The notes below the pieces were generated by a model that was not told where the DNA came from, made no database searches, and worked only from the letters and a program-made list of their open reading frames with translations. Below are positions 5,164 to 24,218 of a stretch of DNA of 64,000 nucleotides, piece by piece. How positions within the stretch are numbered: position 1 is the first letter of the stretch; each line of letters opens with the position of its first letter. Location of the stretch: the NCBI GenBank assembly GCA_046351595.1, contig JAXLYE010000002.1:1368022-1432021 (forward strand), read 5' to 3'. The position numbers were made by a program, and so were the translations under genes. The DNA comes from Polyangia bacterium. GTDB taxonomy: Bacteria > Myxococcota_A > Polyangia > Palsa-1104 > JAEUJZ01.

Positions 5164-5176
5164 CGCACGGCGCCCG

Positions 5177-7099: not shown

Positions 7100-7163
7100 G
7101 GCTCTGCTCCCTGTCTCTAGGTGGAAGATTTGAATACGCCTATCGGCTGACTCGCGGACCCGC

Positions 7164-7761: not shown

Positions 7762-9003
7762 ATGGCGCTTGATGCTCTGATCTTCGACATTGATGGCACC
7801 CTGCTCGACACCAACGACCTGCACGTCGAGGCCTGGCGGCAGACGCTCGAGCAGCACGGCTACACCGTCGCCAGCGACCGCATCGAGCAGGAGATCGGCA
7901 AGGGCGGCGATAAGCTGGTGCCGTCGCTGCTCGGCCGCTCGCTCGACAAAAAGGACGGCGACCGGATGCGCAAGCTGCAGCCCGAGCGGTTCGCGGAGCT
8001 CGCGCGGTCGCGCGGCGTGCGGGCGTTCCCGGGCGCGGTCGAGCTCCTGCGCGAGGCGCGCCGGCGCGGCCTCAAGGTGGTGCTGGCGACGTCGAGCCAG
8101 AAGGCGCACGTGCGCGTGCTCGGCGAGACCTCGGGCATCGATCTCGAGCGCGAGGTCGATCACCTGGTCACCGCCGACGACGCCGCCGAGTCCAAGCCGG
8201 CGCCGGACCTGGTCGAGGCCGCGGTGCAGCGGCTCGGCCTGAGCCCGGCGCAGTGCGCGATGGTCGGCGACACGCTGTACGACATGGAGGCGGCCAAGCA
8301 CGCCGGCGTCATCGGGCTGGGCGTGCAGACCGGCTACCAGCCGCCGCGGGAGCTCCTGCGCAACGGCGCGCGCGCCGCTTGGAAGAGCACCAAGGAGCTC
8401 TACGCCGCGCTCGACGAGGTGCTGCGCATCGCCTCGCCGAGCGAGCTGCGGCCGACGCAGGCGGTCCTCGAGGCGCTGATGCGCGAGGCGCTGCGTGAGG
8501 CCGAGGCGGCGCTGGCGCAGGGCGAGATCCCGATCGGCTGCGTGCTGGCCAACGGGCGCGGCGAGATCATCGGGCGCGGCTTCAACCAGCAGACCCGCAC
8601 GCGCGAGCGCACCGCGCACGCCGAGATGGTCGTCTTCCGCAGCGTCGCCGGCCGCATGCCCGACGAGTCAGCGGGCCAAGGAAGCGACGGCCGGGATCAT
8701 ATTCTGGTGAGCACGCTGGAGCCCTGTGTAATGTGTACCGGCGCAGCCATGGAAGCAGCCATCGACACCATTCTCTATGCGCTTGAGGGGCCCGCGGACA
8801 GCGGCACCGGGCGCGTGCTGTGCCCCGAGAGCCCGGCGAGCCAGATGCCGCGCATCGTCGGCGGCGTCCTGCGTGGCGAGAGCCGCGCGCTGCTCGAGCG
8901 CTTCGTGAAGGTCGCCAAGGACCCGATGCAGAAGGCCTTCACCGAGCAGCTCTTGGAGCTGGCGCCGACGCGTGGGCCTCTGCGCAAGCGGGGGGGCTCG
9001 TGA
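7762..9003 (+). CDS. Fusion protein: HAD-superfamily hydrolase (beta-PGM-like) fused to a CDA-fold nucleoside/nucleotide deaminase (TadA-like)
   Basis: ATG 7762 with a GAGGGAA RBS. The N-terminal domain is MALDALIFDIDGTLLDTNDLHVEAW...VGDTLYDMEAAKHAG, carrying the HAD motifs DxDGT and GD. The C-terminal domain is EIPIGCVLANGRGEIIGRGFNQ...HAEMVVF...LEPCVMCTGA, the H(A)E/PCxxC zinc deaminase signature. The 106 codons upstream in the same frame are not coding-like. Confidence 0.7.
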   Translation: MALDALIFDIDGTLLDTNDLHVEAWRQTLEQHGYTVASDRIEQEIGKGGDKLVPSLLGRSLDKKDGDRMRKLQPERFAELARSRGVRAFPGAVELLREARRRGLKVVLATSSQKAHVRVLGETSGIDLEREVDHLVTADDAAESKPAPDLVEAAVQRLGLSPAQCAMVGDTLYDMEAAKHAGVIGLGVQTGYQPPRELLRNGARAAWKSTKELYAALDEVLRIASPSELRPTQAVLEALMREALREAEAALAQGEIPIGCVLANGRGEIIGRGFNQQTRTRERTAHAEMVVFRSVAGRMPDESAGQGSDGRDHILVSTLEPCVMCTGAAMEAAIDTILYALEGPADSGTGRVLCPESPASQMPRIVGGVLRGESRALLERFVKVAKDPMQKAFTEQLLELAPTRGPLRKRGGS

Positions 9004-10274
9004 ACCGCGGCCGCCTGATCGCCGTCGCCGCGCTGTCGGTCGCCGGGGCCGGGGTGGCGACGTACCTGACCTCGATCCACGTCCGTCACCTCAGCACCGG
9101 CGCCGCGAGCTCGTGCAACTTCGGCGGCGCCTTCAACTGCGACGTCGTCAACACCAGCCCCTGGTCCGAGCTCGCGGGCGTGCCGGTCTCGCACCTCGGG
9201 CTGCTCGTGTACCTGCTCGCGCTGCTGCTCGCCGTCGTCGGGCTGCGCAAGGAGGCGCTGCGGCCGCGGCTGCACCTCCTGCTGGCGCTGCTCGCGGCGG
9301 GCGCGGTCGCGGTGTCGCTCGGGCTGGCCTACGTGTCGCTGTTCGTGCTCAAGGCGATCTGCGTGTTCTGCACGACGCTGTACGCGATCAACCTCGGGCT
9401 GCTCGGGGTGACGCTGCCGGGGCTGTTGGCGTCGCTGCGGGCGGCGCGCGGGGCGCGGACCGAGCCGCCGGGCGCCGCTGCGCCGTCGCCCGAGTCGTCG
9501 GGCTCGATCCTGAAGGTGCTCGGCGACGCGGCGATCGCCGGGCCGCTCATCGGCCTGGTCTGCGGCTTCGGCTTCTCGGCCGCCTACCTCCTGCGCACCC
9601 TCGGCGAGGTGCGGGCCAAAGCGGCGGCGCGCAAGGAGCTGGTCGCGCCGATCGACGCGCCGCGCGTGGACCTGGTCACTCCGACGGCGCCGAGCCACGG
9701 CCCGACCAACGCGCCGCTGACCATCGTCGAGGTCAGCGACTTCGAGTGCCCGTTCTGCCGCCGCACCGCCGCGACGCTCAAGGAGCTGCAGGCGCTGTAC
9801 CCGGGCCAGATCCGCGTCGTGTTCCGGCACTTCCCGCTCGATCAGGCCTGCAACCCGCTGCTCACCCGGCCGCTGCACGAGAACGCCTGTGAGGCCGCGC
9901 GCGCCGCGGTCTGCGCCGCCCAGCGCGACCCCGAGCGCTTCTTCGCGCTCGCCGACAAGCTCTTTGCCGGCGACGCCGCCGACTTCTCGAGCGAGGCCAT
10001 CACCCAGGCCGTCGCCGCCGTCGGGCTGGCGTCGCCGGAGTTTGACGCCTGCCAGAAGGGCCAGGCCGCGGCCGACGCGGTGGCGCGCGACATCCGCGAG
10101 TGCAGCGCCGCCGGCGTGCGCGCGGTGCCGGTGCTGTTCGTAAACGGCCGGGCCGTGCGCGGCGCCCTGCCGCTCGCCACCTACCAAGAGGTCCTCGACG
10201 AGGAGCTGCGCCGTGCTGGTGCGGCTCCCGCTCCCGCCGCCGCTCCCGCCGCCGGGCCCGGCCACGCCCCCTAG
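9000..10274 (+). CDS. VKOR (vitamin K epoxide reductase-like) membrane domain fused to a DsbA/thioredoxin-like domain
   Basis: The GTG start overlaps the upstream TGA (GTGA), indicating translational coupling. TM region with loop cysteines (SSCNFGGAFNC) and the VKOR active site KAICVFCTTLY. The C-terminal Trx-fold has a CPFC motif (VSDFECPFCRR). Confidence 0.7.
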   Translation: MNRGRLIAVAALSVAGAGVATYLTSIHVRHLSTGAASSCNFGGAFNCDVVNTSPWSELAGVPVSHLGLLVYLLALLLAVVGLRKEALRPRLHLLLALLAAGAVAVSLGLAYVSLFVLKAICVFCTTLYAINLGLLGVTLPGLLASLRAARGARTEPPGAAAPSPESSGSILKVLGDAAIAGPLIGLVCGFGFSAAYLLRTLGEVRAKAAARKELVAPIDAPRVDLVTPTAPSHGPTNAPLTIVEVSDFECPFCRRTAATLKELQALYPGQIRVVFRHFPLDQACNPLLTRPLHENACEAARAAVCAAQRDPERFFALADKLFAGDAADFSSEAITQAVAAVGLASPEFDACQKGQAAADAVARDIRECSAAGVRAVPVLFVNGRAVRGALPLATYQEVLDEELRRAGAAPAPAAAPAAGPGHAP

Positions 10275-10412
10275 CGGGCCGCCCGAGCGCCCGAGCGCCC
10301 GAGCGCCCGAGACGCAGGCGACCGCCGAAACTGCGGAAGCTGTTCCCGCGCGCCGGCTCGCTCTGGTAGCCTGAGTCCTAAGCTAAGCCAGGCATATCCA
10401 AGGTCGCCCACG

Positions 10413-12269
10413 ATGTCACAGGAGCAAAACGAGGCGGAGAAGCTCGTCGGCAAGGTGCTGGCCAACACCTACCGGCTGGAGCAGCTCCTGGTCTCGGGAG
10501 GGATGGGCGCCGTCTTCCGCGCCCGGCACATCCGCACCGGCGGCGTCTGCGCCATCAAAGTGCTGCACTCGCGCTCGGCCCAGAACGCCGACATCTTCGA
10601 GCGCTTCCAGGACGAGGCGCGCATCATCTCGGGCCTGCGCCACCCCAACATCGTGCAGGTCACGGACCTGGACCAGGACGCAAGCGGCCTGTCCTTCATC
10701 GTGATGGAGCTGCTCGAGGGCGAGGACCTGCAGGACCGCCTCGAGCGCGAGGGCAAGCAGCCGCTCAACAAGGCGCTGGAGATCACGCGGCAGATCGGCT
10801 CGGCGCTGCACGCCGCGCACTGCAAGGGCGTCATCCACCGCGACCTCAAGCCGCGCAACATCTTCCTCGCCCGCTACGAGGTCAACGGCGAGATGGTCGA
10901 GGTGGCCAAGGTCATCGACTTCGGCGTCTCGAAGATCCCGCGGCCCTCGGATCGGGCGACGCGCGATCTCCTGGTGCTGGGCACGCCGCGCTACATGGCG
11001 CCCGAGGGCGCGATGGGCCAGAACTCGCAGATCGACGGGCGCTCGGATCAGTGGTCGGTGGCGGTGATCCTGTACCGGCTGCTCTCGGGCCGGCTGCCCT
11101 TCGACCAGGAGAACGTGATCGACCTGTTCAAGCAGGTGATCAACGACGAGCCGACGCCGATCGAGCAGCTTTCGCCCGGGCTGCCGCGGCACATCGCCGA
11201 CGCCATCAAGCGGGCGATGCGCAAGAAGAAGGAAGACCGCTTCCCGACGATGCTGGACTTCCTCGAGGCGCTCGAGCCGCCGAACAAGCGCAAGCGCCGG
11301 CCGCAGTCGCAGAGCGCGATGCCGGCGGGCGCGGCGCGGCGCATGCTGCGGCGGAACCTCCTGTTCGCGGGCCTCGGCGCGGTCATGAGCCTGGCGGTGC
11401 TGATCCCGCTGTGGCGGCACCAGGCGAAGCTCAAGCGGACGAGCGGGCAGGGCTCGGAGCTGTTGTCGCAGGCCGATCTCGACCTGGCCGAGGAGCGCTG
11501 GGACGACGCGGCGATGCGCGCCGAGCGCGTGCTGAACATGCCCGGGCAGCCGCCGGCGATGCGCCAGGCCGCCGAGGTGACCAAGCGCCGCGCCGAGAGC
11601 GGGCGGCAGGCGCAGGGCGTCACCAAGAAGCTCATCGACGCGCTTCTGGCCAAGGACCTTGACACCGCGGTCGGCATCAACCGCGACATGCCGCCCAACA
11701 TCAGCGTGCGCGTGACCGCGCAGCAGCTCTACGACCTGCTCCTGCCGGCGATGGTCGGCGACCACCTGCAGAAGGCCGAGGCAGCGCGCGCGCTGGGCAA
11801 CTGCCCCGAGGTCCAGCGCCACGTCAACCAGGTGCTGCGCCTCTCGCCCGCGGACCTCGACGCGCTGCAGTCGCGCTGGCGGCCCTGCGTCTCGTACAAG
11901 GACGTCAAGGCACCGGGGCCGCGCCGCCTCGCCGGGTACCCGCCGGCGCGCGACGCGGACGGCACCTCGCTCGACCTGCCGGGCGACTACCTCGGCGGCC
12001 GCAGCACGCTGGCCGACGTCGATCGGCTGCTGCGCGAGGCGCAGATCGCGCACGAGGCCGGCCAGTACTGGCGCGCCGCGACGCTGGCCCACGCCGCCGT
12101 CGGCACGCCGCTGCGCGCCCCGACGGCCTGGCGCATCATCGGCATCTCCGCCTGCAACCTGCGCGACCGGGCGCTGCTCGCCATCGCCGGTGAGCACCTC
12201 GACGAGCTGTCGCGCGAGTTCGTCCGCGCCGGCTGCCAGACCGCGGGCTTCCCGGCGACCGGGCTGTGA
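10413..12269 (+). CDS. Ser/Thr protein kinase (Hanks-type) with C-terminal TM segment and extracytoplasmic region
   Basis: Gly-loop GGMGAVF, catalytic Lys in AIKVL, HRDLKPRNIFL, DFGVSK and APE motifs. A TM helix LLFAGLGAVMSLAVLIPLW follows the kinase domain. Confidence 0.85.
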   Translation: MSQEQNEAEKLVGKVLANTYRLEQLLVSGGMGAVFRARHIRTGGVCAIKVLHSRSAQNADIFERFQDEARIISGLRHPNIVQVTDLDQDASGLSFIVMELLEGEDLQDRLEREGKQPLNKALEITRQIGSALHAAHCKGVIHRDLKPRNIFLARYEVNGEMVEVAKVIDFGVSKIPRPSDRATRDLLVLGTPRYMAPEGAMGQNSQIDGRSDQWSVAVILYRLLSGRLPFDQENVIDLFKQVINDEPTPIEQLSPGLPRHIADAIKRAMRKKKEDRFPTMLDFLEALEPPNKRKRRPQSQSAMPAGAARRMLRRNLLFAGLGAVMSLAVLIPLWRHQAKLKRTSGQGSELLSQADLDLAEERWDDAAMRAERVLNMPGQPPAMRQAAEVTKRRAESGRQAQGVTKKLIDALLAKDLDTAVGINRDMPPNISVRVTAQQLYDLLLPAMVGDHLQKAEAARALGNCPEVQRHVNQVLRLSPADLDALQSRWRPCVSYKDVKAPGPRRLAGYPPARDADGTSLDLPGDYLGGRSTLADVDRLLREAQIAHEAGQYWRAATLAHAAVGTPLRAPTAWRIIGISACNLRDRALLAIAGEHLDELSREFVRAGCQTAGFPATGL

Positions 12270-12322
12270 GCCCGCCCTCGATCGCCAAAGCTCCCTGACC
12301 GATCGCGACGGGCTGCGAGCGC

Positions 12323-14440
12323 TCAGCGCGAGATCAGCAGCACGCGCGGCCCCTGCGTATCGACCGGCGGCTCCTCGATGTCCAGCGTCGTCAAAAGGAC
12401 CGAGCCGATGGCCTCGGTGCGCGGGTCCTTGGCCTCGGGCGGCGGCGGCGCCGGCTCGCGGTGCTTGCCGTCCTTGGGGTGGCGCGGCGGCGGCTTGACC
12501 GGCGCCGGCTCGGGCGGCGGCGCCAGCTCGCGCAGCGCCTCGTCGCGCAGCTCCTCGGGGATCAGGCACGAGAACAGCTCGCCCGGGCGCAGCGCCTGCT
12601 TCAGCTCGCGCACCGAGCCGTACTCCTCGATCTTCTGACCCGAGTACAGCGACGGCACCTGCCGCGGCAGCGCGACGGTGCAGCGCCGGGCGCGCTGCGG
12701 CGCGTGGCGCAGCGACTGCGTCAGCGTCTTGATCGTGTCGTTCTTGTGCAGCACCGGCGCGCCCTCGACGGTCGCCACTACCACGCCGGCCAGCGCGCAG
12801 GCGGTGATGAGGCCGCCCAGGCCGCCGAGCCAGCGCACCGGCGACTGCAGCCCGACGGCCGCGCACAGCGCCAGCGGCGGCAGCACCAGCCCGAGCCCGC
12901 GCGGCGGCACGCTGCCGTCGCCCAGCGAGGTGATCGCGGTCGCCACCACGATCCACACCAGCAGCGGCCGCGACGCCCGCCGCAGCGACCCGAGCAGCAG
13001 GCCGAAGCCCGTCGTCACCACCACCACCTGACCGACGTGCCGGCCGAACCAGGTGTCGCCCTGGTGCCAGACCGCGAAGAAGGTCGCCTTGAGCGCCTCG
13101 AGCTGCGGCCAGTGCAGGTAGTTGCGTAGCGGCACCGGCTGCACGAACGTCGCCGCCGCGGTCAGCAACAGGCCGCCGAGCAGCATCATCCACACCCGCC
13201 GCTTGCGCAGCAGGTAGCGGTGCGAGATCGCCATGTCGACGAGCGCGAACATGATGGCGACGAAGCCGGCGCGCGGGTCGTAAAGGGCCGCGACACCGAT
13301 GCCCAGCGTCGCGAACAGCATCGGCAGCTTGCGCAGCGGCAGCGGCGCCGGCTCGTCGGCCTCGCGCTGGAAGGGCAGGATGTGGCGATCGAACTTGTGG
13401 CCGTGCAGGCTGTGGCTGACCAGCGCCACCGCCGCGGTCGCGGCAAAGGCGATCAGCATGTCCGGCAGCACGCGGTGCGACAGCTGGTAGGTCAGCGGCA
13501 TCGCCAGCAGCACCAGCCCGGCCAGTCCGCCGGCGTGGCGACCGACGCCGACGTCGATGGCGATGGCCAAAAGGCAGCTCGCGGCCCCGAGCGCGGCCAG
13601 CGCCGGCAGGAGGCGCAGCGTCCACTCGCTCGGCTCGAGCAGCCGCAGCAGCACCATGAACGACGCCAGCCCGAGCGGCGCGCCCGTCGGCGGCGGCACC
13701 AGGTGCGCGGCCTGCTCGAGGCGCAGCTCGCCGCTGGCCGTGGCCCGCAGCGCCAGCGCCACCTCGGCGTCGATGTTCCACAGGCTGCCGGCGCCGAGGT
13801 CGAGCAGGTACAGGATGATCGGCAAGAGCAGGGCCACGGCCCAGCCGAGCACCAGCCCGGTCGGCGCCTGCAGCGCCTCGACCACCTGCTGCGCGGCGCC
13901 GATCGGATCGCGCAGCGCGTCGACGGTGACGTTGGCGGCCTTGCCCAGCACCTCGGTGCCGCGCTCCAGGCCCTCCTCGATCTTCTCGGGGATCTTGCCC
14001 GGCAGCTCGGCGAGCTGCGCCAGGCGGCCCTTGCGGCGGAACCACGACCGCTTCCCCGAGCGCGGCGGTGCAGCCGGGGGCGGTGCCGCAGGCGCAGCCG
14101 GAGCATTGCCCGGGCTGGCCGAGCTGGCCGAACTGCCCGAGCGGGGAGGTGAGGCGGCGCTGGGCGCGGCGGCCGTCGGATCGGTTGCGGATCGCGGGCC
14201 GGGCCGGTCGCCAGGCGCGTCGCTGCGCGGCGGGTCGCTGCCCAGACCGGGACCCGGCCCAGGACCCGGACCGGGATCCGCGGGCCGCTTGTCGCTGCGC
14301 GGCGGGCTGTTTGCCGACGGGGCGACGCCGCTCGCCGGGACGCGGAAGGGCGCCAGCGCCGGCAGCCACGGGTTGCTGCTGGCTGGCACCGGCGGCTTGG
14401 GCGGGCGCTTCCCGCGCCCTGACCGCGGCGGCCGACTCAT
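12323..14440 (-). CDS. Polytopic membrane protein with Pro/Ser-rich disordered N-terminal tail; possible GT-C/PMT-like glycosyltransferase
   Basis: Real start inferred at ATG (complement of 14438-14440, MSRPPRSG...) inside the 985-aa track ORF. About 140 aa of PPRS/PGPG low-complexity sequence is followed by more than 10 hydrophobic helices. The opposite-strand ORFs here are Arg-rich shadows. Confidence 0.55.
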   Translation of the reverse strand: MSRPPRSGRGKRPPKPPVPASSNPWLPALAPFRVPASGVAPSANSPPRSDKRPADPGPGPGPGPGLGSDPPRSDAPGDRPGPRSATDPTAAAPSAASPPRSGSSASSASPGNAPAAPAAPPPAAPPRSGKRSWFRRKGRLAQLAELPGKIPEKIEEGLERGTEVLGKAANVTVDALRDPIGAAQQVVEALQAPTGLVLGWAVALLLPIILYLLDLGAGSLWNIDAEVALALRATASGELRLEQAAHLVPPPTGAPLGLASFMVLLRLLEPSEWTLRLLPALAALGAASCLLAIAIDVGVGRHAGGLAGLVLLAMPLTYQLSHRVLPDMLIAFAATAAVALVSHSLHGHKFDRHILPFQREADEPAPLPLRKLPMLFATLGIGVAALYDPRAGFVAIMFALVDMAISHRYLLRKRRVWMMLLGGLLLTAAATFVQPVPLRNYLHWPQLEALKATFFAVWHQGDTWFGRHVGQVVVVTTGFGLLLGSLRRASRPLLVWIVVATAITSLGDGSVPPRGLGLVLPPLALCAAVGLQSPVRWLGGLGGLITACALAGVVVATVEGAPVLHKNDTIKTLTQSLRHAPQRARRCTVALPRQVPSLYSGQKIEEYGSVRELKQALRPGELFSCLIPEELRDEALRELAPPPEPAPVKPPPRHPKDGKHREPAPPPPEAKDPRTEAIGSVLLTTLDIEEPPVDTQGPRVLLISR

Positions 14441-15059
14441 GCCGCTTGCACCCTGCCGAGCTGTCGCATCGCAACGACGGTAGATTGCGAGGGCCCCGGC
14501 TTCAAGCGGGAACACCCGCGGCCTGAGCCAGAGCGCGCCGATAGGCCCTGGTGGCCGGCGCCGCGACGCGCTGGAGGCGGGACCGCGGCCCCGCGCCGAT
14601 TCCGGCCCGGCGCGGGGCTTCGGCAGATTGAGCGCGCCGCTGCGGCTTCCTGCCGTCGTGGCACCGGCTGCGCCGACCCGGTCGCGGAGGAGATGGAGCA
14701 GCGGCCCGCGCAGCTCGTCCGGCCGCCCTTGCCCACGAAGCCCCGGCACTCGCTGCAAGATCCGCCAGCGGACCGCTGTCGCAGGTCGGTAAAAGTACGC
14801 CTCCGCCGTCGCGCCGTCGCTGCGAAGTCGCCTCGCGCGCGGACACCCCAGCGACGGCGGGCCGCGGTAATATGAGATCACCCCGGGTGTATGCAGGCTC
14901 ATGGGCCGTCGGGGTTGGGGCCAAGCACATGCAGGCGCAGTCGCCGCACAGCCACAACGGCTTGCCCACGAACGACGGTACGCACCGTCGGGCGCGCCCA
15001 CCGGTCTGCCCGCGCGGCCGGCGGGCGGTGGCGTGCGGCCGCAGCGTCGGGGGGCCGCG

Positions 15060-16223
15060 ATGAGCGCCTCGGCGCGCTCGCAGCTCGCCCTGGCCGTCGA
15101 CCTGCGCGACGCCAGCGTGCTCCTGGTCGACGACACGCCCGAGCAGTCCGAGGAGCTTTTGATCACGCTCACCGAGGCCGGCTTCAAGGTGATGACCGCC
15201 TCGAGCGGCCCGCAGGCCAAGCAGAAGCTGATGCAGGCCGGCGCCGATCTGGTGCTGCTCGATCTCAAGGGCGCGGACATGGACAGCTACGAGCTGTGCC
15301 GCCAGCTCAAGGCGCCGCCGCCGCTGCGCTCGGTGCCGGTGGTCTTCCTGTCCGCGCCGAGCGGCGACGACGTCGACGGGCGGGTACGCGCGTTCCGGGC
15401 CGGCGCCGCCGACTACCTGGCGCGCGAGGCCGACTTCGCCGAGCTGCTGGTGCGCCTGGAGCACCACATCCGCCTCGGCCGCAAGGTGCGCGAGCTGGAG
15501 CGCGAGCGCGTCGAGCTCTTGCGCGAGAACCGCGACCTGAAGAAGGAGAAGCAGACCGCGCCGCCGCCGATCCTGACCAACCTGGCCGACCTGCCGACGG
15601 GCTACCTGCTCGACGGCAAGTACCGGCTGGACACGCGCATCGGCGCGGGCGGCTTCGGCGTCGTCTACCGCGCCCTGCACCTGTCCCTGCAGCGCGCGGT
15701 GGCGGTGAAGCTGTTCCGGTCCATGGCCAACGGCTCCACCGACGACGCGCTGCGCCGCTTCCGGCACGAGGGCACCTCTGCCAGCCGCCTCAGCCACCCC
15801 AACGCCGTGACCATGCTCGACTCGGGCGTGGCGCCGGGCGGCATCCCGTACCTGGCGATGGAGCTCCTGGTCGGGCGCACGCTCGCCGAGGAGCTCAAGG
15901 ACAAGCAGCGCCTGGGCTTCGCCCGCTGCCTGCAGATCATCCTGCCGGTGTGCGACGTGCTCGTCGAGGCGCACGCCGCCGGCATCGTGCACCGCGACAT
16001 CAAACCCGAGAACGTGTTCCTGCACCGGACGCGCTCGGGCGAGGTGATCAAGGTGCTGGACTTCGGCATCGCCAAGCTCGTCGGCGAGGGCGAGGGCATC
16101 CCGGCGGTCACCGGCGCCGGCGGCTTCATCGGCACGCCGACCTACATGGCCCCCGAGCGCCTGCGCCAGGGCAGCTACGACGGCCGCTCGGACGTGTACT
16201 CGGTCGGCGTGGTTCTGTACCAG
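15060..16223 (+). pseudogene. 5' fragment of a response-regulator receiver-Ser/Thr kinase gene (receiver domain plus kinase subdomains I-IX), interrupted after ...DVYSVGVVLYQ
   Basis: ATG 15060. The receiver domain is VLLVDDTPEQSEELL...VLLDLKGADMDSYELCRQLK. The kinase region carries GAGGFGVVY, VAVKL, HRDIKPENVFL, DFGIAK and GTPTYMAPE. Beyond 16223 the frame runs into non-kinase low-complexity sequence up to a stop at 16403, antisense to the LmbE gene end. Confidence 0.75.
16206..16223 (+). repeat. 18-bp direct repeat GGCGTGGTTCTGTACCAG, left copy, at the upstream junction of the insertion
   Basis: Identical 18-mer found again at 18875-18892. It encodes G-V-V-L-Y-Q in frame in both kinase fragments. 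Confidence 0.9.
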
Positions 16224-16330
16224 GCTTTGCGCCGCGCCGGTGCCGTCGACGAGTCCGGCGGGCGGGGCGGCGGGGAAGCGGCGGGGAAGGGCGCGGTGCC
16301 GGCGGCCGGCACGTCTGCGCTCGGGCGCGC

Positions 16331-17200
16331 TCAGCCCAGCTCGGGGGCCGCGGGCGGCGCGCCGCCGAGTTCCTGCCCGAGATCCTGGAAGATCTCGGCG
16401 TAGTTCTGGAAGTGCCCGGGTCCGGTGCGCAGCGCGTAGAAGGACTCGGCGAGCTCGATGCCGGGCGCCAGGCGGGCCATGCCCTGGGCCATGCCCTGCA
16501 AGAACGCGCGCGCGCCGCCCTCGAGCTGGGCGCGCTGCTCCGCGGTCAGGCAGCGCGGGTCGGCGCCGGGCACGAACCAGTCCGCGAGCATCTCGATCTG
16601 CGAGGAGTGGCAGAGCAGCGACGCGACCTTCTTGTCGAAGGTCGGCCCGATGTCGATGACACGGTTGGGCCGCCTCTCGACGGGGCCCATGTACCAGACC
16701 TCGGTCGGCTGCGTCGCCTCGAGGTTCTCGCTGCCTTCGCGCAGGTGCTCCTCGTGCAAGAGCGGGAAGCACGAGAACACCGCGGCCTCGGAGGCCATGC
16801 GCCCGACCGCGATGTGATCGGGGTGGATCTCGTGCGTGCGGAACGGGTCGAAGGTGACGACGCGGTGGAGGCGCAGGCGGCGGAACCAGTAGACCAGGCG
16901 CTCGCGCAGCTCGAGCGCGTGCTCGCGCACACCGCCGTCGGGCAGGCCGAGCACGATCGGCGGCTCGGCGCCCAGGAGTGACAGCGCCGCCCCGAGCTCG
17001 CGCTCGCGCGTGGCGGCGAGGGCGGCGCGATCGACGCCGCGGTGGCGGGTGCCGAGGTCACCCCGGGTGGCGCAGATCGCGTAGACCTTGTGGCCGGCGG
17101 CGACCCACTTGGCCAGCGTGCCGGCCGCGAAGAACTCGCCGTCGTCGGGGTGGGCGTACACGAAGGCGATGTTCAGGGGCTCAGCGGGTGCTGACGGCAT
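16331..17200 (-). CDS. LmbE/PIG-L family N-acetylglucosaminyl deacetylase
   Basis: N-terminal NIAFVYAHPDDGEFFAAGTLAKW...ICATRGDLG is the PIG-L (LmbE-like) signature, with the HPDD metal-binding motif. Confidence 0.8.
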   Translation of the reverse strand: MPSAPAEPLNIAFVYAHPDDGEFFAAGTLAKWVAAGHKVYAICATRGDLGTRHRGVDRAALAATRERELGAALSLLGAEPPIVLGLPDGGVREHALELRERLVYWFRRLRLHRVVTFDPFRTHEIHPDHIAVGRMASEAAVFSCFPLLHEEHLREGSENLEATQPTEVWYMGPVERRPNRVIDIGPTFDKKVASLLCHSSQIEMLADWFVPGADPRCLTAEQRAQLEGGARAFLQGMAQGMARLAPGIELAESFYALRTGPGHFQNYAEIFQDLGQELGGAPPAAPELG

Positions 17201-17221
17201 GGCTCCTCCATCTGCATGCAG

Positions 17222-18142
17222 TTACGCATCCCATGGATCTTCAAACGTCCTGCGATAGACGTCGAGGGAGGGGACGAAGCGGATCAGGTGCTCGTCGAGG
17301 CCCTCGAGCTCGCCGACGACGTAGCCGAGCTCGCGGCGGCAGCGGTCGTGGAAGGTCGAGAGCGTGGGGCGCGACAGGTAGAACCCCTGGTGGAACAGCG
17401 GCGACTCGAAGCCCGTCACGATCAGGCCGCGCGGTCGGTCGAGGTCGAGCAGGATGCGGCCGGCGTTGCGCAGGTTGGTGGTGGTGTGGCGCGCGTAGGG
17501 CTCGACCAGGATCTGCGCCGCCGGCACGCCGCGCTCGATGAGGTACTCGCGCATGTGCAGCGCCTCGTTGTGCGGCGTGCCCGGCGGGTAGACGCAGCCG
17601 CCGGTCAGGAGCACGAGCGGCGCCGCGCCCTGCTGGAACAGCTCCGCCGCGCGCTCGAGGCGCTGCTGCGCCGGCGGCAGGTCGCGCACCTTGAGCGGCA
17701 CGCGGGCGTCGGGCGGCGTGTAGCCCGGCACGATGAGCGCGTCGTGGTCGCTGTCCTCGGGCACGGTCGCCTTCGCGAAGGCCAGCGCCGCGGCGTTGAG
17801 CTCGGCCTCGCCGAACGACGGCCGCGCCGCCGCGAGGTGCGGCAGCAGGTCCGCGAGCGCCTCACCGCCGCGCCGCAGCGCCGCCTGCAGGTGCTCGTAG
17901 TGACCGCCGCGGGCGAGGGCGTGGAACAGGGCGCCCAGCGCCCCGGCGGCGTGCGCCCGCTCGATGAGCGGCCCCGTCGCGACCGCGAGCAGCTGTGGCA
18001 GGGCGCCGCGCCGCCCGAGCTCCTCGACGACGCCGACCAGCAGACCGGGCTCCGTCGGCAGCAGCCGCGCGGGCGCCACCCTGGTCGGCCGGCGCAGCAC
18101 CTCGCAGAGCTCGTCCGCGTGCGGCATGACGTCGGCGGGCAC
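17222..18142 (-). CDS. DUF218 (YdcF/ElyC-like) domain protein
   Basis: C-terminal LVLLTGGCVYPPGTPHNEALHMREYLIERGVPAAQILVEPYARHTTTNLRNAG fits the DUF218 core. A 21-bp gap separates it from the LmbE gene downstream. Confidence 0.65.
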   Translation of the reverse strand: MPADVMPHADELCEVLRRPTRVAPARLLPTEPGLLVGVVEELGRRGALPQLLAVATGPLIERAHAAGALGALFHALARGGHYEHLQAALRRGGEALADLLPHLAAARPSFGEAELNAAALAFAKATVPEDSDHDALIVPGYTPPDARVPLKVRDLPPAQQRLERAAELFQQGAAPLVLLTGGCVYPPGTPHNEALHMREYLIERGVPAAQILVEPYARHTTTNLRNAGRILLDLDRPRGLIVTGFESPLFHQGFYLSRPTLSTFHDRCRRELGYVVGELEGLDEHLIRFVPSLDVYRRTFEDPWDA

Positions 18143-18178
18143 GGGCCGGTGCTCCGTGAAACCTGAGGGCGGCGGCGG

Positions 18179-18739
18179 CTACTTCTGGCGCAGCGTCCGC
18201 AGCGCGCCGCTCCAGGCGATGACCTGGTCGAGCAGCGTGTTCACGGACTTCTCGTGGTGCGCGCCGGGCTTGAAGACCGTGTAGTGCTCGAAGTCGCTGT
18301 GCAGCGACAGCGCGACCTGGGCGCGGACGTCCGCGACCTGCAGCTCGCCCATGATCAGGCGCAGCTGCTCGACGGCGCGCGTGCCGCCGGCGCTGCCGTA
18401 GCCGACGAAGCCGGCCGCCTTGTTGTTCCACTCGCGGTACAAAAAGTCGATCGCGTTCTTGAGCGCGCCCGAGGTCGAGTGGTTGTACTCGGGCGTGACG
18501 AAGACGTAGCCGTCGAACGAGCCGATCTTCTCGGCCCAGGCCTTGGTGTGCGGCTTGCTGTACTGGCCCATCGCCGGCGGCATCGGCTCGTCGAGCAGCG
18601 GCAGGTTGAAGTCCTGGATGTCGACGAGCTCGAACTCGGCGTCGCTGCGCTTCTGGGCGATGTCGTGGACCCAGCGGGCGACCGCCTCGGCCTTGCGACC
18701 CGGGCGCGTGCTTCCGATGATGATCGCGATCTTCAGCAT
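18179..18739 (-). CDS. NAD(P)H-dependent FMN reductase (flavodoxin-like fold)
   Basis: This is the real C-terminal 186 aa of the 1196-aa shadow track ORF: MLKIAIIIGSTRPGRKAEAVARWV...YVFVTPEYNHSTSGALKNAIDFL. The start may be off by ±1 nt because of my indexing. Confidence 0.8.
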   Translation of the reverse strand: MLKIAIIIGSTRPGRKAEAVARWVHDIAQKRSDAEFELVDIQDFNLPLLDEPMPPAMGQYSKPHTKAWAEKIGSFDGYVFVTPEYNHSTSGALKNAIDFLYREWNNKAAGFVGYGSAGGTRAVEQLRLIMGELQVADVRAQVALSLHSDFEHYTVFKPGAHHEKSVNTLLDQVIAWSGALRTLRQK

Positions 18740-18874
18740 GGCGATGACTCTCCTCAAAGACGGATGATCCCAGGTTACGCCGATTTCGTGCGGCCCGGGG
18801 AGGCGCTGCGCGCGGCCGGTGCCCGCGGCGACCGCAGCGACCCCGGGGAACGCCCGGCGCGACCTGTCGACGGC

Positions 18875-18892
18875 GGCGTGGTTCTGTACCAG
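18875..18892 (+). repeat. 18-bp direct repeat GGCGTGGTTCTGTACCAG, right copy, at the downstream junction of the insertion
   Basis: Identical to 16206-16223. The sequence immediately 5' of it is non-kinase; kinase homology resumes exactly at the repeat. Confidence 0.9.
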
Positions 18893-19417
18893 ATGCTCGC
18901 CGGCCGCCCGCCGTTCTGGAGCGAGAAGGACAGCTACCTCGAGATCGTGCTCGGGCACCTGTCGGAGCTGCCGCGCGCGCTCAACGAGGTCAACCCGAGC
19001 GTGTCGCCGCAGATGACGCAGATCGTGATGCGCACGCTCGAGAAGGACCCGGCGCTGCGGCCGACGGCCAAGGAGCTGCTGAAGGAGCTGATGCGGCTGA
19101 TGCGGCGGACCACGGGCCAGCACGACACCGTCGATCACCGCAGCGCCGAGGCCGGGGCGTCGTCGTCGCCGAGCCTGCAGCCGATCTCGGCGATGTCGCT
19201 GTCGCCGTCGGCCAAGTCGCAGCCGCCCGGCGTGCCGATCGCGCTGGCGACCGCACCGACGGTCCCGACGAGCGTGCCGCCGCCGGCGCGGCGCAGCGAC
19301 GCCAGCGACTTCGAAGAGGAAGACACCGGCGTGGCCCTGCCCACCGCGGTCACCATCGAGATCGATCAGCGCCTGATCGACAAAGGCTCCGGAAGCTCCG
19401 GAAGCTCCGGAAGCTAG
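18893..19417 (+). pseudogene. 3' fragment of the same receiver-Ser/Thr kinase gene (kinase subdomains X-XI plus Ser/Pro-rich tail ending GSGSSGSSGS)
   Basis: ...(VVLYQ)MLAGRPPFWSEKDSYLEIVLGHLSELPRALNEVNPSVSPQMTQIVMRTLEKDPALRPTAKELLKEL... has no start codon or N-lobe of its own. It is in frame with the 5' fragment once the insert is removed. Confidence 0.75.
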
Positions 19418-19540
19418 CCGCCGCCGATCCCGGACGCTGTCCCTCCGGACGCGGCCTGAGCGACGAGAGCGGCGTGATCGGCAGCAGGCGCCGACCTGCC
19501 CAGAACGACAGGCGCGGGCGCGCCGGCGGGGCGTGATAGC

Positions 19541-21175
19541 ATGTGGGGCTATAAGCCCTTGCGTCGCCTGGCCGATGGCCTGCGCACAGGGGCAGGCGCG
19601 ACGGAAACCCCTGTGGCCAAGGACCAAGAGAAGCTCTGCTTTGCCTGTCCTGCCAGCTACCCGGCGGCATACTCGTCGTGTCCCAAGTGTCAGCTGCCGC
19701 TGGTGTTCCCCTGCATCGGCAAGGTCTGGCGCGTCGAGGGGCTCATCGGCCGCGGCGGCATGGGCGCGGTCTTTTTGGCCCACCATGTCGACGATCCGCG
19801 CAAGCGCGCCGCGGTGAAGGTGCTGGCCACCATCGCCGGCGAGCAGCGCGCCGATCGCATGGACCGGATCGCCCGCTTCCAGCGCGAGGCCGAGGCGATG
19901 CGGCGCCTGACCCACCCCAACATCGTCCAGCTCTACGACTTCAGCCGCGAGCGCGACGGGTCGCTGTACCTGGCCATGGAGTACCTGCAGGGCCCGTCGC
20001 TGAGCAAGCTGCTCAAGGCGCGCCACTGCCTGCCCGGGGACGAGGCGGCGTCGCTGATCCTGCCGGTGCTGTCCGCCGTCGAGGCGGCGCACAAGGTCGG
20101 GGTCATCCACCGCGATCTCAAGCCGGACAACATCGTGCTGGCGACGGTGCAGGACGGCAAGCGCGAGGTGCAGCGGATCAAGGTCGTAGACTTCGGCGTG
20201 GCGCGGCTCAAGGACGACTCGCTGACCGACAGCGGCCAGGCGCTGGGCACGCCGGTGTACATGGCGCCCGAGCAGGCGCAGGGCGGCAGCGTCGACGAGC
20301 GCGTCGATGTCTACGGCGCCGGCGCGGTGCTCTACGAGCTCTTGACCGGGCACCCGCCGTTCACGCCGCCCGACGCGCCCAACGCCAACCTGGCGGTGCT
20401 GGCGCGCATCATGACCACGGACCCGACGCCGATCCGCGAGCGCTGCCCGGACATCTCGCCGGCGCTGGAGTCGGTGGTCCAGGGCGCGATGTGCCGCGAC
20501 CGCGAGAAGCGCTACCACAGCGTCGAGGAGTTTGCGGCGGCGCTGCAGGAGGCGGTGAAGCGGCCGGACGAGCGGCTGTGGACGCCGCCGGCCGAGATCA
20601 CGGCGCTGCCGCTGCCCTCGGCCGTGGCCGCCGCGGTGTCGCAGCCCAACCGCCTGCCGCGCAACTCCATCCCGCCGCACCTGCGCACGTCGATGGGGCC
20701 GCTGCGGCGCAGCATGGGGCCGGGGGCGAGCGTGCCGGCGTCGCCGCTGTTGGGCGGTCCGTCGGGCCCGGTGGCGATGTCGCGCGCGGCGGCGAGCGCA
20801 CCGGTGGCGCCGCTCTCGGTGAGCCGCTCGGGGGCGGCGATCCCGCCGCTCGGCACCGGGTCGCGCCCGCCGTCGGCACCCGGCTCGTTCAGCGCGCCGA
20901 GCCGGCCGCCGGTGGCGCGCTCGGCCCAGAGCTTCACGCCGGTGCCGCCGGGCGCCGCGTCCGAGGCCTCGCGCCCGTCGGTGGTGGCCTCCAAGTCCAG
21001 CAAGCCGCCGGCCTCGCGCGGCTACCGCCTGTTCATCGCCGGCCTGTACCTGGTGCTGGTGGGCGCCATCCTGCTCGTCCTGGCCATCACCAACTGCCGC
21101 GTGCGCGGCAAGCCGACCTCGCTGCTGCTGCCGGGCCCCGTCGCTGCGGACCGGATCTCTGCGGCGCTGGGCTGA
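19541..21175 (+). CDS. Ser/Thr protein kinase with N-terminal Cys4 zinc-ribbon and C-terminal Pro/Ser-rich region plus TM helix
   Basis: Zinc ribbon CFACP...[38 protein letters not shown] and MAPE motifs. C-terminal TM helix LFIAGLYLVLVGAILLVLAI. Confidence 0.8.
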   Translation: MWGYKPLRRLADGLRTGAGATETPVAKDQEKLCFACPASYPAAYSSCPKCQLPLVFPCIGKVWRVEGLIGRGGMGAVFLAHHVDDPRKRAAVKVLATIAGEQRADRMDRIARFQREAEAMRRLTHPNIVQLYDFSRERDGSLYLAMEYLQGPSLSKLLKARHCLPGDEAASLILPVLSAVEAAHKVGVIHRDLKPDNIVLATVQDGKREVQRIKVVDFGVARLKDDSLTDSGQALGTPVYMAPEQAQGGSVDERVDVYGAGAVLYELLTGHPPFTPPDAPNANLAVLARIMTTDPTPIRERCPDISPALESVVQGAMCRDREKRYHSVEEFAAALQEAVKRPDERLWTPPAEITALPLPSAVAAAVSQPNRLPRNSIPPHLRTSMGPLRRSMGPGASVPASPLLGGPSGPVAMSRAAASAPVAPLSVSRSGAAIPPLGTGSRPPSAPGSFSAPSRPPVARSAQSFTPVPPGAASEASRPSVVASKSSKPPASRGYRLFIAGLYLVLVGAILLVLAITNCRVRGKPTSLLLPGPVAADRISAALG

Positions 21176-21208
21176 GCCCGGGCGCCGGCTTTTGCTAAAA
21201 CGGTCTGC

Positions 21209-22006
21209 GTGGACACGCCGCCGCACGATCTGCTGAGGCTCGCGACCTGCTTCGGCCTCGGCGCCGTCGCGGCCGGCATCAACGCCATCGCCGGCGGCGG
21301 CACGCTGCTGTCGTTCCCGGTGCTGGTGGCGCTCGGCTGGCCGGCGGTCATCGCCAACGCCACCAACGCCGCGTCGCTGTGGCCGGGCAGCCTCGGCAGC
21401 GCGCTCGGCTTCCGCGACGAGCGCTCGCGCGCCACCATCCGCGGCCACCTGCCGCTCTTGCTCGTGCCGACGTTCATCGGCTCGGCGCTGGGCGCGCTGC
21501 TCCTGACCGTGAGCGGCGAGCGCCTGTTCCGCCTGCTGGTCCCGGCGCTGGTGCTGCTGGCGACGGTGCTCTTGGCGCTGCAGCCGCGCATCCGCCGCCG
21601 CAGCCAGGCCCGCGCCGCCGCCGGGGCCGCGCCGCGCCGCCTGCCGACGTGGGCGGTCCTGTTGCTGCAGCTCTTCATCGGCGTCTACGGCGGCTACTTC
21701 GGCGCCGGCATGGGCATCCTGATGCTGGCGCTGCTCGGCCTGTACATCGAGGGCGACCTGCACGAGCACAACGCGCTCAAGGCCTGGCTCGGCGTCGCCG
21801 TCAATCTATTGGCAAGCGTGATATTCTTTTGGCAGGGCCTGATCGACCTGCCGGCGGGGGCGGCGATGGCGACGGGCGCAGTCCTGGGCGGCTACGCCGC
21901 GGCGCGGCTGTCGCTGCGGGTCAAGGCCGACGCGCTGCGGCTGGTGATCGTGGTGATCGGCGCGCTCTTGTCGCTGTGGTTCACGCTGCGGGCGCTGCGC
22001 GGCTGA
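21209..22006 (+). CDS. TauE/SafE (DUF81) family sulfite/anion exporter
   Basis: 265 aa, about 8 TM segments, and the two-repeat architecture with GGGxxxxP-like segments (INAIAGGGTLLSFPVL; VYGGYFGAGMGILML) typical of DUF81. Confidence 0.7.
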   Translation: MDTPPHDLLRLATCFGLGAVAAGINAIAGGGTLLSFPVLVALGWPAVIANATNAASLWPGSLGSALGFRDERSRATIRGHLPLLLVPTFIGSALGALLLTVSGERLFRLLVPALVLLATVLLALQPRIRRRSQARAAAGAAPRRLPTWAVLLLQLFIGVYGGYFGAGMGILMLALLGLYIEGDLHEHNALKAWLGVAVNLLASVIFFWQGLIDLPAGAAMATGAVLGGYAAARLSLRVKADALRLVIVVIGALLSLWFTLRALRG

Positions 22007-22042
22007 GGCCCCGAAGGCACAGAAGGCCCCGGGCGCGACCGG

Positions 22043-22540
22043 CTACTTCTGCTTGCGCTTGGCGATCCACTCGCGCGTGATCTCGGCGGCGCGGTCGTAG
22101 CCCTTGCGCATCTCGTCGACCATGTACTGCTCGATCTTGCCGCCGACGAGCATCACCGAGACCTTGATGTCACCGGCGAAGACGCGCTGGCAGCGGCCCG
22201 TCCCGATCGGCACCACGCTGAACACGCCGCCCATCTTGAAGCGGTTCTGCATCACCTCGGGCTCGATGCGCACGTCCATCTTCGAGGCGGCCTTGTCGTA
22301 GACGTCGTACTCGGTGTAGCCGGTGCTGGTGATCAGCGACTGCGCCCAGCTCGGCACCGGCATGTCGGGCTCGAGCTTCTGGGTGCGGATCAGCTTGTCG
22401 CCGGTGTCGCGCCGCTCCTTGACGGTGCGGCTGCGCATGCCGATGTGCTTGAACATCGCCTCTTCGAACTTCTCGTCGAAGAACAGCTCCCAGAAGCCCT
22501 GCGGATCGGTGTCGAAGTCGTGCGAGAAGCGGAAGTCCAT
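22043..22540 (-). CDS. Hypothetical protein, DUF2505/SRPBCC-like (165 aa)
   Basis: Real start MDFRFSHDFDTDPQGFWELFFDEKFEE... with an AAAGGAA RBS. The upstream part of the track ORF is a non-coding-like extension. Confidence 0.55.
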   Translation of the reverse strand: MDFRFSHDFDTDPQGFWELFFDEKFEEAMFKHIGMRSRTVKERRDTGDKLIRTQKLEPDMPVPSWAQSLITSTGYTEYDVYDKAASKMDVRIEPEVMQNRFKMGGVFSVVPIGTGRCQRVFAGDIKVSVMLVGGKIEQYMVDEMRKGYDRAAEITREWIAKRKQK

Positions 22541-23074: not shown

Positions 23075-24211
23075 ATGACCATCTTTTCCCAGCCAGACCC
23101 GCGCCGCATCACCCGCTTCGCTTCCTCCGGCGGCTGAGCGGCCAAGGTGGGTCCGGGCGACCTGCACGAGCTCCTGCACGGCCTGGGCGCGGCCCGGGAC
23201 CGAGCGCGCGACCCCGCGGTGCTGGTCGGCACCGAGACCGGGGACGACGCGGGCGTGTTCCTGTTGCCGTCCGCCGCCGGGGCCGGCGCGGGGCCGCGCA
23301 GCGACGGGCTGGCGCTGGTGCAGACCGCGGACTTCATCACGCCGCCGTTCGACGATCCGTTCGCCTACGGGCAGATCGCCGCCGCCAACGCGCTCTCGGA
23401 CGTCTACGCCATGGGCGGCCGGCCGGTGACCGCGCTGAACCTGTGCGCCTTCCCGCGCGAGCTCCTGCCCGAGGTCGCGCACGAGATCCTCGAGGGCGCG
23501 GCGGCGGCGCTGGCGGCGGCCGGGGCGGCGCTGCTCGGCGGCCACACCGTGCGCGCGCCCGAGCTGTTCTTCGGCCTCGCTGTGACCGGGCTGGTCGACG
23601 CCTCGCGCATCTGGCGCAACATCGGGGTGCGTCCGGGGGACGTGCTCTTGCTCACCAAGCCGCTCGGCGCCGGCCTGCTCGTGACGGGCGCGCGCAAGGG
23701 CCTGATCTCCGAGGCCGAGCGCAGCGCCTGCGCCGTCGGCATGGCCGCCCTCAACCGCCGCGCCGCCGAGATCCTTGGGGATCCGGCGCTCGACCTTGGG
23801 GTCCACGCCGCGACCGATGTCACCGGCTTCGGGCTCGCCGGGCACGGGCTGGGCATGACCCAGGCCGCCGGCGGGGCCGACGCGGCCGGCGACGTGGCGC
23901 TGCGGCTGCACCTCGGCTGGCTGCCGCTGTACCCGGGCGCGCGCGCGCTGGCCGAGCGCGGCGTCACCTGCGGCGGCGCCCAAAGCAACCAGCGCGCCTA
24001 CCGCGAGCGCATCACCAGCGCGCGCCCGCTGACCGCCGCCGAGCAGGAGCTGCTGTTCGATCCGCAGACCTCGGGCGGGCTGCTCTGCGCGCTGCCGGCG
24101 GCGGCCGCGGAGCGCGCGCTCTTGGCCCTGCACGGAGCCGGCATCCCGGCCGCGCGCATCGGCGAGGTCGTGCCGCGCGCGGGCGGCGCCCCGCTCGTAG
24201 TCGTCGACTGA
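23075..24211 (+). CDS. selD: Selenide, water dikinase SelD (selenophosphate synthetase) with in-frame UGA (23135-23137) decoded as selenocysteine
   Basis: ATG 23075 follows the upstream TAG. Translation reads MTIFSQPDPRRITRFASSGG-U-AAKVGPGDLHELL, matching the SelD N-terminus (E. coli RLTQYSHGAGCGCKISP; Sec-containing orthologues have GAGUGCK). Downstream are the AIR-synthase-like PurM fold motifs GTETGDDAGV and LTKPLG. The track ORF (23147) starts just after the UGA. Confidence 0.8.
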
Positions 24212-24218
24212 GGTCCGC

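Follow-up and report, generated by a model that had tools for sequence, protein, structure and literature searches.

We analysed a 64,000-nt stretch of DNA from a Polyangia bacterium (contig JAXLYE010000002.1 of assembly GCA_046351595.1, positions 1,368,022 to 1,432,021; the whole stretch is called the window below) and found that a gene for a receiver-Ser/Thr kinase is split in it by a cassette of three genes lying between 18-bp direct repeats. Comparison with related lineages shows that the cassette is a true and old insertion into a previously intact gene, which took place once, in a common ancestor of three or more Polyangia lineages, and duplicated 18 bp of the target. Judged by their substitution patterns, both halves of the kinase gene are under purifying selection, and the 18-bp repeats appear still to recombine in the window strain.

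An old insertion into a receiver-kinase gene

The repeat sequence, GGCGTGGTTCTGTACCAG, was found by exact scan in two copies, one at each end of the insert (coordinates in Table 1). There is no further match to it in the window with up to three mismatches on either strand, and two or more matches were obtained in none of 100 shuffles. The identity between the copies reaches 19 bp on the left side, through a C at 16205 and 18874, and does not extend on the right; comparison with the sister and empty lineages described below identifies this 19th shared base as a coincidental synonymous change in the window genome. The inserted segment measures 2,651 bp, and its GC content (72.7%) is the same as that of the window. 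Removal of one repeat unit (2,669 bp) restores the open reading frame (ORF): when 15060-16223 is rejoined with 18893-19417, the resulting 1,689 nt are in frame, with the sole stop at the end, and encode 562 aa. Thus, the perfect 18-bp repeats and the rejoining of the frames by excision, both described in an earlier note on this DNA, were reproduced.

The rejoined product has a Response_reg domain (PF00072, residues 20-133) and one unbroken Pkinase match (PF00069, residues 188-453, profile positions 1-260 of 263), both above the Pfam cut-off. The HRD, DFG and APE catalytic motifs are visible in the rejoined kinase sequence. The earlier note took the fusion of a receiver with a kinase to be uncommon; this is contradicted by 1,189 homologous proteins retrieved at E<=1e-60. 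Both domains are present in nearly all of the 120 homologues listed, which come from Myxococcota and Acidobacteriota.

In the source metagenome-assembled genome (MAG) the five genes of the locus are consecutive NCBI proteins, MFO0574883-MFO0574887 (locus-tag prefix U1A78_), on a 1.63-Mb contig. The 5′ ORF is annotated there as a 'protein kinase' of 447 aa (MFO0574883.1), which continues for 59 codons within the insert as far as a stop at 16403, while the 3′ part is annotated as a protein of 217 aa (MFO0574887.1) starting from an ATG at 18764.

A search for uninterrupted orthologues of the rejoined ORF, proposed in the earlier note, was successful in three related contigs and in remoter relatives. 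Contig L088 (JGI, 13.4 kb) is collinear with positions 6891-22540 of the window at 89-94% nucleotide identity and has an empty site: its kinase (P0244, 556 aa) is intact and contains one identical 18-mer, by which the two alignment blocks overlap. An empty site with one 18-mer copy is also present in L089, at ~91-94% identity. In L083, at ~80-85% identity, the empty site is formed by an intact kinase gene of 614 aa, followed by the same downstream kinase. All remoter kinase orthologues (61-68% amino acid identity) are uninterrupted.

The same cassette occupies the same site in two other lineages, a sister lineage (L085-L087) and a third one (L091). Contigs L085 and L086 (ENA) connect the downstream kinase with the cassette across the right junction, at 93-95% nucleotide identity, and L086 continues through the left repeat, with just 33 nt of kinase 5′ sequence; L087 (Logan) spans the left junction. 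Only the right junction is covered in L091 (Logan), which is 84.6% identical overall and 91.8% identical in the kinase 3′ half. The right repeat differs from the 18-mer at one position in the sister lineage and at two in L091, one of them non-synonymous. Syntenic single-copy empty sites on the one hand, and junctions found in independent assemblies on the other, bear out the earlier suggestion of a genuine insertion with an 18-bp target duplication and practically exclude an assembly error.

At the level of DNA, the 18-mer is not a general feature of kinase genes. Allowing for up to two mismatches, it is limited to the lineage group, where it occurs in orthologous kinase loci or in contigs with the cassette (91 loci searched, 1.29 Mb, mostly kinase loci). 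The earlier note had named a frequent kinase motif as the finding that would speak against its reading, and had also proposed capture of the cassette through a motif common to kinase paralogues. The former is not the case, and the latter was rejected, since the 18-mer is absent from the other kinases of the window and from 80 other kinase loci.

Descent of the insertion and constraint on the kinase halves

Distances between lineages were calculated for the kinase 3′ half together with the start of the next gene. The p-distance is 0.028 between the window and the sister lineage, 0.075 between the window and the empty L088, 0.095 between the window and the occupied L091, and 0.091 between L088 and L091. 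With L083 as the outgroup, 13 informative sites of the quartet join the window with L088, 10 join L088 with L091, and 4 join the window with L091. The last grouping is the only tree with a single gain and no loss; the other two require either a precise loss or a second gain. There is, therefore, a weak indication that the intact L088 allele sits phylogenetically among occupied lineages. In L091 the divergence of the cassette fragment is similar to that of its flanks (94% versus 92-98% identity). This speaks for one old insertion that was inherited vertically and was later removed from the L088 lineage by a precise loss or an allelic replacement.

Comparison of the window with the sister lineage gave a ratio of non-synonymous to synonymous substitution rates (dN/dS) of 0.10 for the kinase 5′ half (24.5 synonymous and 7.5 non-synonymous changes) and 0.19 for the 3′ half (9 and 5, respectively). 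In the same comparison, dN/dS is 0.12-0.36 for the cassette genes (FMN reductase 0.12, deacetylase 0.13, DUF218 0.36) and 0.16-0.31 for neighbouring genes, and dS is 0.08-0.11 in the cassette versus 0.05-0.09 in the flanks. We also considered the terminal branch of the window, which was polarised with the empty lineage L088 and lies entirely after the insertion. On this branch 9 synonymous changes stand against 4 non-synonymous ones in the 5′ half (P of neutrality 0.0015), and 6 against 1 in the 3′ half (P of neutrality 0.0016). The kinase-domain portion of the 3′ half has a dN/dS of 0.11 relative to L091, and the values for both halves, including the window branch, range from 0.06 to 0.19.

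The kinase halves are ~97% identical to those of the sister lineage (<3% differing) and show no frameshift. The left insert end is 18% diverged from the sister lineage, and the alignment of the right insert end contains 19 mismatches and 16 gap positions. Neither a frameshift nor a stop is present in the 1.69 kb of the window or in the recovered stretches of the other occupied lineages. The expectation of the earlier note that both kinase fragments would be non-functional is not supported, given the purifying selection and the lack of disabling mutations in three occupied lineages.

In the cross-lineage comparison we found neither a conserved start region nor a ribosome-binding site upstream of the 3′ part. 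The frame that precedes it (18764-18892) has a dN/dS of 1.37 relative to the sister lineage, a 12-nt indel and, in L091, an in-frame stop; the annotated start of the 217-aa protein is therefore not conserved. The sole conserved start candidate of the 3′ part is the Met codon at 18893, directly after the right repeat, which is conserved in all lineages and also encodes an invariant kinase residue. Both the 5′ read-through tail and the 3′ upstream extension are poorly conserved. In the AlphaFold model of an intact orthologue (P0001) the split falls after residue 398, within a helix (residues 385-401, predicted local distance difference test score ~90) that corresponds to helix F. This is the hydrophobic core helix of the kinase fold and, going by the model, a split at this place would be unfavourable for a working two-piece enzyme.

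Length variation was observed in the kinase tail. At 19380-19414 a 9-nt repeat, CTCCGGAAG, encodes GSGSSGSSGS; the corresponding stretch is GSGSSGS in L085, GSGS in L088 and GS in L091. This variation in copy number is simple repeat slippage.

Junctions at the repeats and explanations of the split gene

Logan contigs are built from a 31-mer de Bruijn graph from which k-mers seen once are dropped (PMC12424806). A 19-bp repeat alone cannot break such a graph. One contig from run SRR26348423 (L081, 2,688 bp) is 100% identical to window positions 16205-18892, that is, it spans from the first base of the left 19-mer to the last base of the right 19-mer. A contig from the sibling run SRR26348422 (L084) corresponds to 17127-18892 and has the same outer end. 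We simulated k=31 unitigs for four allele mixtures. The inserted allele alone produced no break at the repeats, a mixture of inserted and empty alleles produced a unitig of 16194-18903 (2,710 nt), and the empty allele with a free circle produced a unitig of 2,699 nt. Only when the inserted allele was combined with a junction of insert end, repeat and insert start was the unitig 16205-18892 (2,688 nt), exactly as observed. The left boundary is diagnostic: the rival predecessor has to share the C at 16205 and to differ at 16204, and the insert end fits this description (…GACGGC followed by GGCGTGG). Since contig ends in two runs match the simulation, a junction of insert end, repeat and insert start, belonging to a circle or to a tandem copy, probably coexists with the inserted allele. 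Recombination of one repeat with the other yields just such a junction, so that the two read sets carry its signature in the assembly graph.

All three cassette genes are complete in Logan, compared to 2 of the 10 flanking genes of the window strain. These counts weakly fit the presence of extra cassette copies; as the three cassette genes lie on one contig, the count of three is not independent. Exact look-ups in the two Logan runs for kin2 with two start codons, for edge-truncated forms of the kinase 5′ and 3′ parts and for the rejoined 562-aa protein returned no match.

The explanation that we tentatively prefer is that of an integrase-less cassette flanked by att-like sites, the 18-mers of which still recombine. 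The three-gene segment, which inserted once into the codons for GVVLYQ (helix F, subdomain IX), would have entered as a circle with one 18-mer by a single reciprocal exchange. The exchange may have been catalysed by a recombinase encoded elsewhere, or else the cassette may be a remnant of a larger integrative element that has lost its integrase. The 18-bp copies would act as attL/attR-like cores that still recombine to give a circle or a tandem copy together with a precisely restored kinase. If the intact gene were continually re-formed in some members of the population, this would account for the purifying selection on both halves, with a possible additional contribution from the two fragments cooperating as separate polypeptides. 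A stronger proposal, that a trans-acting recombinase excises and re-integrates the recombinase-less cassette at the 18-bp core in the helix-F codons and in this way switches kinase integrity and cassette copy number at the DNA level, we regard as unlikely.

Several observations weigh against a cassette that is still recombining. The additional junction was deduced from contig ends, and a stable tandem duplication collapsed in the MAG fits them equally; no circle or empty-site read was seen directly, the evidence consisting of Logan contigs. The right repeat has decayed in the sister lineage and in L091 (by one and two mismatches, respectively), and Logan contigs L087 and L091 cross a repeat unbroken. 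Recombination may thus be limited to the window strain with its perfect repeats. No recombinase candidate was identified in the insert, the 64-kb window or the 91 loci, nor was there in the 91 loci a cognate autonomous element or an integrase for the same site, the rest of the source MAG being outside the search. Likewise, no second copy of the cassette was found elsewhere in the window, in the 91 loci, in the JGI metagenome collection or in plasmid, phage and viral collections, again with the remainder of the source genome outside the search. The quartet gives weak support, as it has 27 informative sites and a distant outgroup and may be affected by recombination. Finally, purifying selection on the halves could result from recombination with intact alleles or from their function as separate proteins.

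The searches for a donor gave little beyond the cassettes already described. The JGI scan returned solely contig NODE_8825 of ERZ650309 (L090), which is the same as L086; plasmid and phage searches with the cassette yielded generic FMN-reductase matches only, and the junction 30-mer is absent from viral contigs.

Somewhat doubtful, though the most serious of the alternatives, is a single illegitimate capture of foreign or paralogous DNA, by now fixed and no longer mobile, the kinase being made as two polypeptides that reassemble or act separately. Such a capture might have arisen from end joining at a staggered break, with fill-in of an 18-nt overhang, or from two template switches in replication. 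The additional Logan junction would then come from a second, tandem cassette copy, generated when the repeats underwent unequal exchange, which agrees with the higher cassette copy number that the gene counts in Logan fit. It is in keeping with the lack of mobility genes in the insert and window, with the failure to find a second copy (the nearest DUF218 relative outside the cassette group is 57% identical), with decay of the right repeat in two lineages, with the conserved Met codon after the right repeat, and with a cassette dS close to that of the flanks, as expected for vertical co-inheritance. Yet helix F is a poor place to divide a two-piece kinase, there is no conserved start or ribosome-binding site before the 3′ half, where the upstream frame looks neutral and is interrupted in L091, and the intact allele falls phylogenetically among occupied lineages. 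An 18-nt stagger would also be unusual for break repair.

It is improbable that the kinase gene is a decaying pseudogene whose repeats have no present role. The 59 unrelated codons into which the 5′ ORF reads, the label 'hypothetical' given to the 3′ part, and the poor conservation of the read-through tail and the upstream extension could be taken as signs of decay, but the low dN/dS of both halves, which holds on the window branch as well, and a 1.69-kb coding sequence free of frameshifts and stops next to non-coding DNA that is 18% diverged and has several indels argue against it.

A conventional mobile element, such as a non-autonomous transposon, an integron cassette or an intron, is still less probable. 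The precise target duplication would suit such an element, as would a 9-bp inverted repeat close to both ends of the insert, in which the sister lineage shows one compensatory change. On the other side, Pfam revealed no integrase, transposase or phage gene either in the insert, where FMN_red, DUF218 and PIG-L are the only families, or in those ORFs of the 64-kb window that are supported by GC content at third codon positions (GC3). The inverted repeat is offset, with its left arm 17 nt inside the insert and its right arm directly next to the 18-mer. It includes the palindrome GTCGAC, and equally good inverted repeats are common locally (409 pairs in 2.9 kb). The direct repeat contains GTTCTGT, which does not fit the integron core GTTRRRY, no integron integrase turned up among the ORFs of the 64-kb window, and three genes with a leader of their own are unlike integron cassettes. 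There was no Rfam match at E<=1 on either strand of 14400-19700, and so no group I or II intron. Other copies, which a mobile element might be expected to have, were not found in the collections searched. The duplication of 18 bp exceeds the fixed duplications of known insertion sequence (IS) families, which are usually in the range of 2-15 bp. We thus agree with the earlier note that the insert, which has neither a transposase nor an integrase and lacks attC-like features and convincing terminal inverted repeats, belongs to no standard class of mobile elements.

The possibility that an assembler placed the cassette by mistake in a kinase gene that is really intact is negligible: the source is a MAG, and in low-coverage SPAdes contigs of the sister lineage (L082 and L086) the adjoining sequence changes no more than 45 bp from the left repeat, but both junctions recur across samples, lineages and assemblers (NCBI MAG, ENA, Logan), the cassette has diverged together with its flanks, and a 19-bp identity is too short for contig joining at k>=21.

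If the 18-mers are active, the locus would represent a minimal, cargo-only element that toggles a signalling kinase by DNA rearrangement in a developmental, multicellular group of bacteria; a recombinase that acts in trans on a protein-coding target would then have to exist as well, and might be useful as a tool. A reversible switch, if true, would be the first case of 'regulated gene integrity' in Myxococcota and the first with no recombination module in the element. If, instead, the insertion is fixed, we are dealing, in view of the strong constraint on both halves, with a natural Hanks-type kinase that is split in helix F and still matters to the cell, which bears on the tolerance of the fold to fragmentation. 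Either way, the annotation of the MAG as 'protein kinase' and 'hypothetical protein' hides a conserved split gene.

The cassette, its surroundings and comparable systems

Table 1. Features of the split kinase locus (window coordinates)
Feature	Position	Strand	Remarks
Kinase 5′ part, codons 1-388: REC domain, coiled linker, subdomains I to mid-IX	15060-16223	+	Pfam, exact NCBI protein, intact orthologues
Left direct repeat copy, 18 bp, encodes GVVLYQ	16206-16223	.	Single copy in empty sites L088/L089
Non-coding left insert end, 107 nt, downstream of deacetylase gene	16224-16330	.	CGGGGAA at 16271, 16282; GCCGTCGAC arm 16241-16249
LmbE/PIG-L deacetylase, third cassette gene, 289 aa, MFO0574884.1	16331-17200	-	Pfam PF02585, E 6e-28
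DUF218 (YdcF-like), second cassette gene, 306 aa	17222-18142	-	Pfam PF02698
NAD(P)H-dependent FMN reductase, first cassette gene, 186 aa, MFO0574886.1	18179-18739	-	Pfam PF03358, E 3e-43
Non-coding right insert end, 135 nt, leader/promoter side of operon	18740-18874	.	CGGGGAA at 18844; GTCGACGGC arm 18864-18872 abuts repeat
Right direct repeat copy, 18 bp	18875-18892	.	1 mismatch in sister lineage, 2 in L091
Kinase 3′ part, codons 389-562: end of helix F, subdomains X-XI, Ser/Pro-rich tail	18893-19417	+	Annotated 'hypothetical protein' MFO0574887.1

Pfam matches confirmed the gene content given for the insert in the earlier note, a minus-strand operon of FMN reductase, DUF218 and LmbE/PIG-L genes with an upstream region of ~135 bp. 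Matches of the deacetylase to BshB/MshB are weak and below the cut-off. A DUF218 protein with 92% identity (P0121) is the occupied sister lineage's own cassette copy. The FMN reductase gene (18182-18739) is 76-79% identical over ~530 nt to NAD(P)H-dependent oxidoreductase genes of large Streptomyces replicons and has the lowest GC content in the cassette (67%); both features hint at a separate or horizontal origin of this gene.

The heptamer CGGGGAA is present in 10 copies in the 64-kb window, and three of them, all on the plus strand, fall within the 242 nt of the non-coding insert ends. It is kept in L086 (both ends) and L091 (right end) despite surroundings that are 18-40% diverged, and could serve as a protein-binding or regulatory site. 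The arms of the 9-bp inverted repeat, GCCGTCGAC and GTCGACGGC, are replaced by GCCGTCGC and GCGACGGC in the sister lineage, one compensatory double change that is statistically weak. It is in a circle or tandem junction only that these arms come to lie 36 nt apart around the 18-mer, and that CGGGGAA and the inverted repeat are both close to it. The two motifs were chosen post hoc, after inspection of the sequence, and k-mers common to both insert ends are not above chance overall (P 0.24). A long hairpin predicted at the circle junction of the window strain was discarded, being not reproduced in the sister lineage. We found no matches to promoter or terminator consensus sequences in 14400-19700.

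Some contigs of the sister lineage have unusual joins. In L082 (ENA ERZ650309, positions 4491-5809) a kinase 5′ half with 98% amino acid identity to that of the window runs into a 3′ half that is 94% identical to P0032, which results in an 'intact' ORF of 639 aa (P0002). We rejected L082 as an intact allele, because its 3′ half resembles that of another kinase (P0032) and the join coincides with a 30-nt identity; the contig may be a chimera. In L086 (3569-4367) the left repeat and 33 nt of kinase sequence give way to a partial, putatively DUF1592-like gene, which has an FFLWDAAPDDD motif. L087 starts exactly at the 30-mer common to the L082 and L086 continuations, so the branch in the sister lineage is real in the reads, and it may be a mere 30-nt identity between two kinase genes. 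Similarly, positions 4157-4207 of L083 match another kinase of the window (43064-43114) with 98% identity over 51 nt, a sign that short near-identical stretches of kinase paralogues are able to confuse assemblers.

The window is an ordinary part of the core chromosome, with genes for IleRS, GatA/GatB, SelB, a possible SelD and several kinases. Four Hanks-type kinase genes, two of them adjacent, are located within 34 kb (10413-12269, 15060-19417, 19613-21175 and 42649-43869). The region 19527-19612, upstream of the GTG start of the next kinase (19613), is near-invariant in five lineages including L083 and contains a hairpin, GGGCTATAAGCCC. The start of this kinase is placed at an ATG at 19541 by JGI and at 19613 by NCBI; the region is either coding or a conserved leader. 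An ORF of 8.1 kb (44889-53000, minus strand, 2,703 aa) has high GC3 and one weak TPR match, and opposite to it lies an ORF of 1,457 aa with an odd pattern of GC content over codon positions. An AIR-synthase-related gene (PF00586/PF02769), possibly SelD, adjoins the SelB gene (23138-26273). This neighbourhood suggests that the organism probably uses selenocysteine.

Among known systems, transposons, IS elements and integron cassettes share with the cassette the duplicated host sequence that marks the insertion point. Unlike transposons and IS elements, the cassette has no transposase and no matching termini, and its 18-bp duplication is beyond the usual range; unlike integron cassettes, it is multi-genic with a 135-nt leader and has neither an attC-type hairpin nor a GTTRRRY core. 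Cis-mobilisable elements (CIMEs) of streptococci are integrase-less cargoes flanked by attL and attR that depend on the recombinase of another element. The cassette resembles them as a repeat-flanked cargo with no recombination module, but CIMEs occupy canonical sites of integrative and conjugative elements (ICEs) at gene 3′ ends, beside their ICE relatives, whereas the cassette lies in the middle of a gene and has no known cognate element. In the cyanobacterial heterocyst elements of nifD, fdxN and hupL, repeats of 5-16 bp flank a segment whose excision by the recombinases XisA, XisF and XisC restores the gene. Here, too, a gene is interrupted between short border repeats, in the heterocyst case in a multicellular differentiating bacterium; the heterocyst elements are much larger and have their own recombinases, while the cassette is small and has none.

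Gene-intervening integrative elements that provide 'regulated gene integrity' include skin in sigK, SPbeta in spsM and cases mapped by TIGER (PMC4191935, PMC7192596). Like skin and SPbeta, the cassette lies inside a coding gene and not at its 3′ end, the uninterrupted gene has one copy of its direct repeat, the frame is restored when the element is taken out precisely, and the interrupted gene stays intact over evolutionary time. Skin and SPbeta are prophages or islands of tens of kilobases with their own integrase and directionality factor. In contrast, the cassette comprises 2.65 kb with three metabolic genes, there is no recombinase in 64 kb, and its excision is read from assembly-graph boundaries only. 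As it is devoid of an element-encoded recombinase, the defining feature of these elements, we do not class it as a member of the regulated-gene-integrity group, of which, to our knowledge, no gene-intervening case has been described in myxobacteria. The gin element in gerE of Bacillus cereus ATCC 10987 encodes the recombinases GirA, GirB and GirC as well as GirX, and its excision was shown experimentally (PMC5595907). The cassette encodes no recombinase, and its excision is read from sequence data. Like it, gin is a non-phage element that splits a regulatory gene, a small one in this case, and it recombines within a 9-bp consensus flanking the two gene segments (PMC5595907). By analogy, then, it is the gene-intervening elements (skin, SPbeta and gin) that the cassette would most resemble in the way it works.

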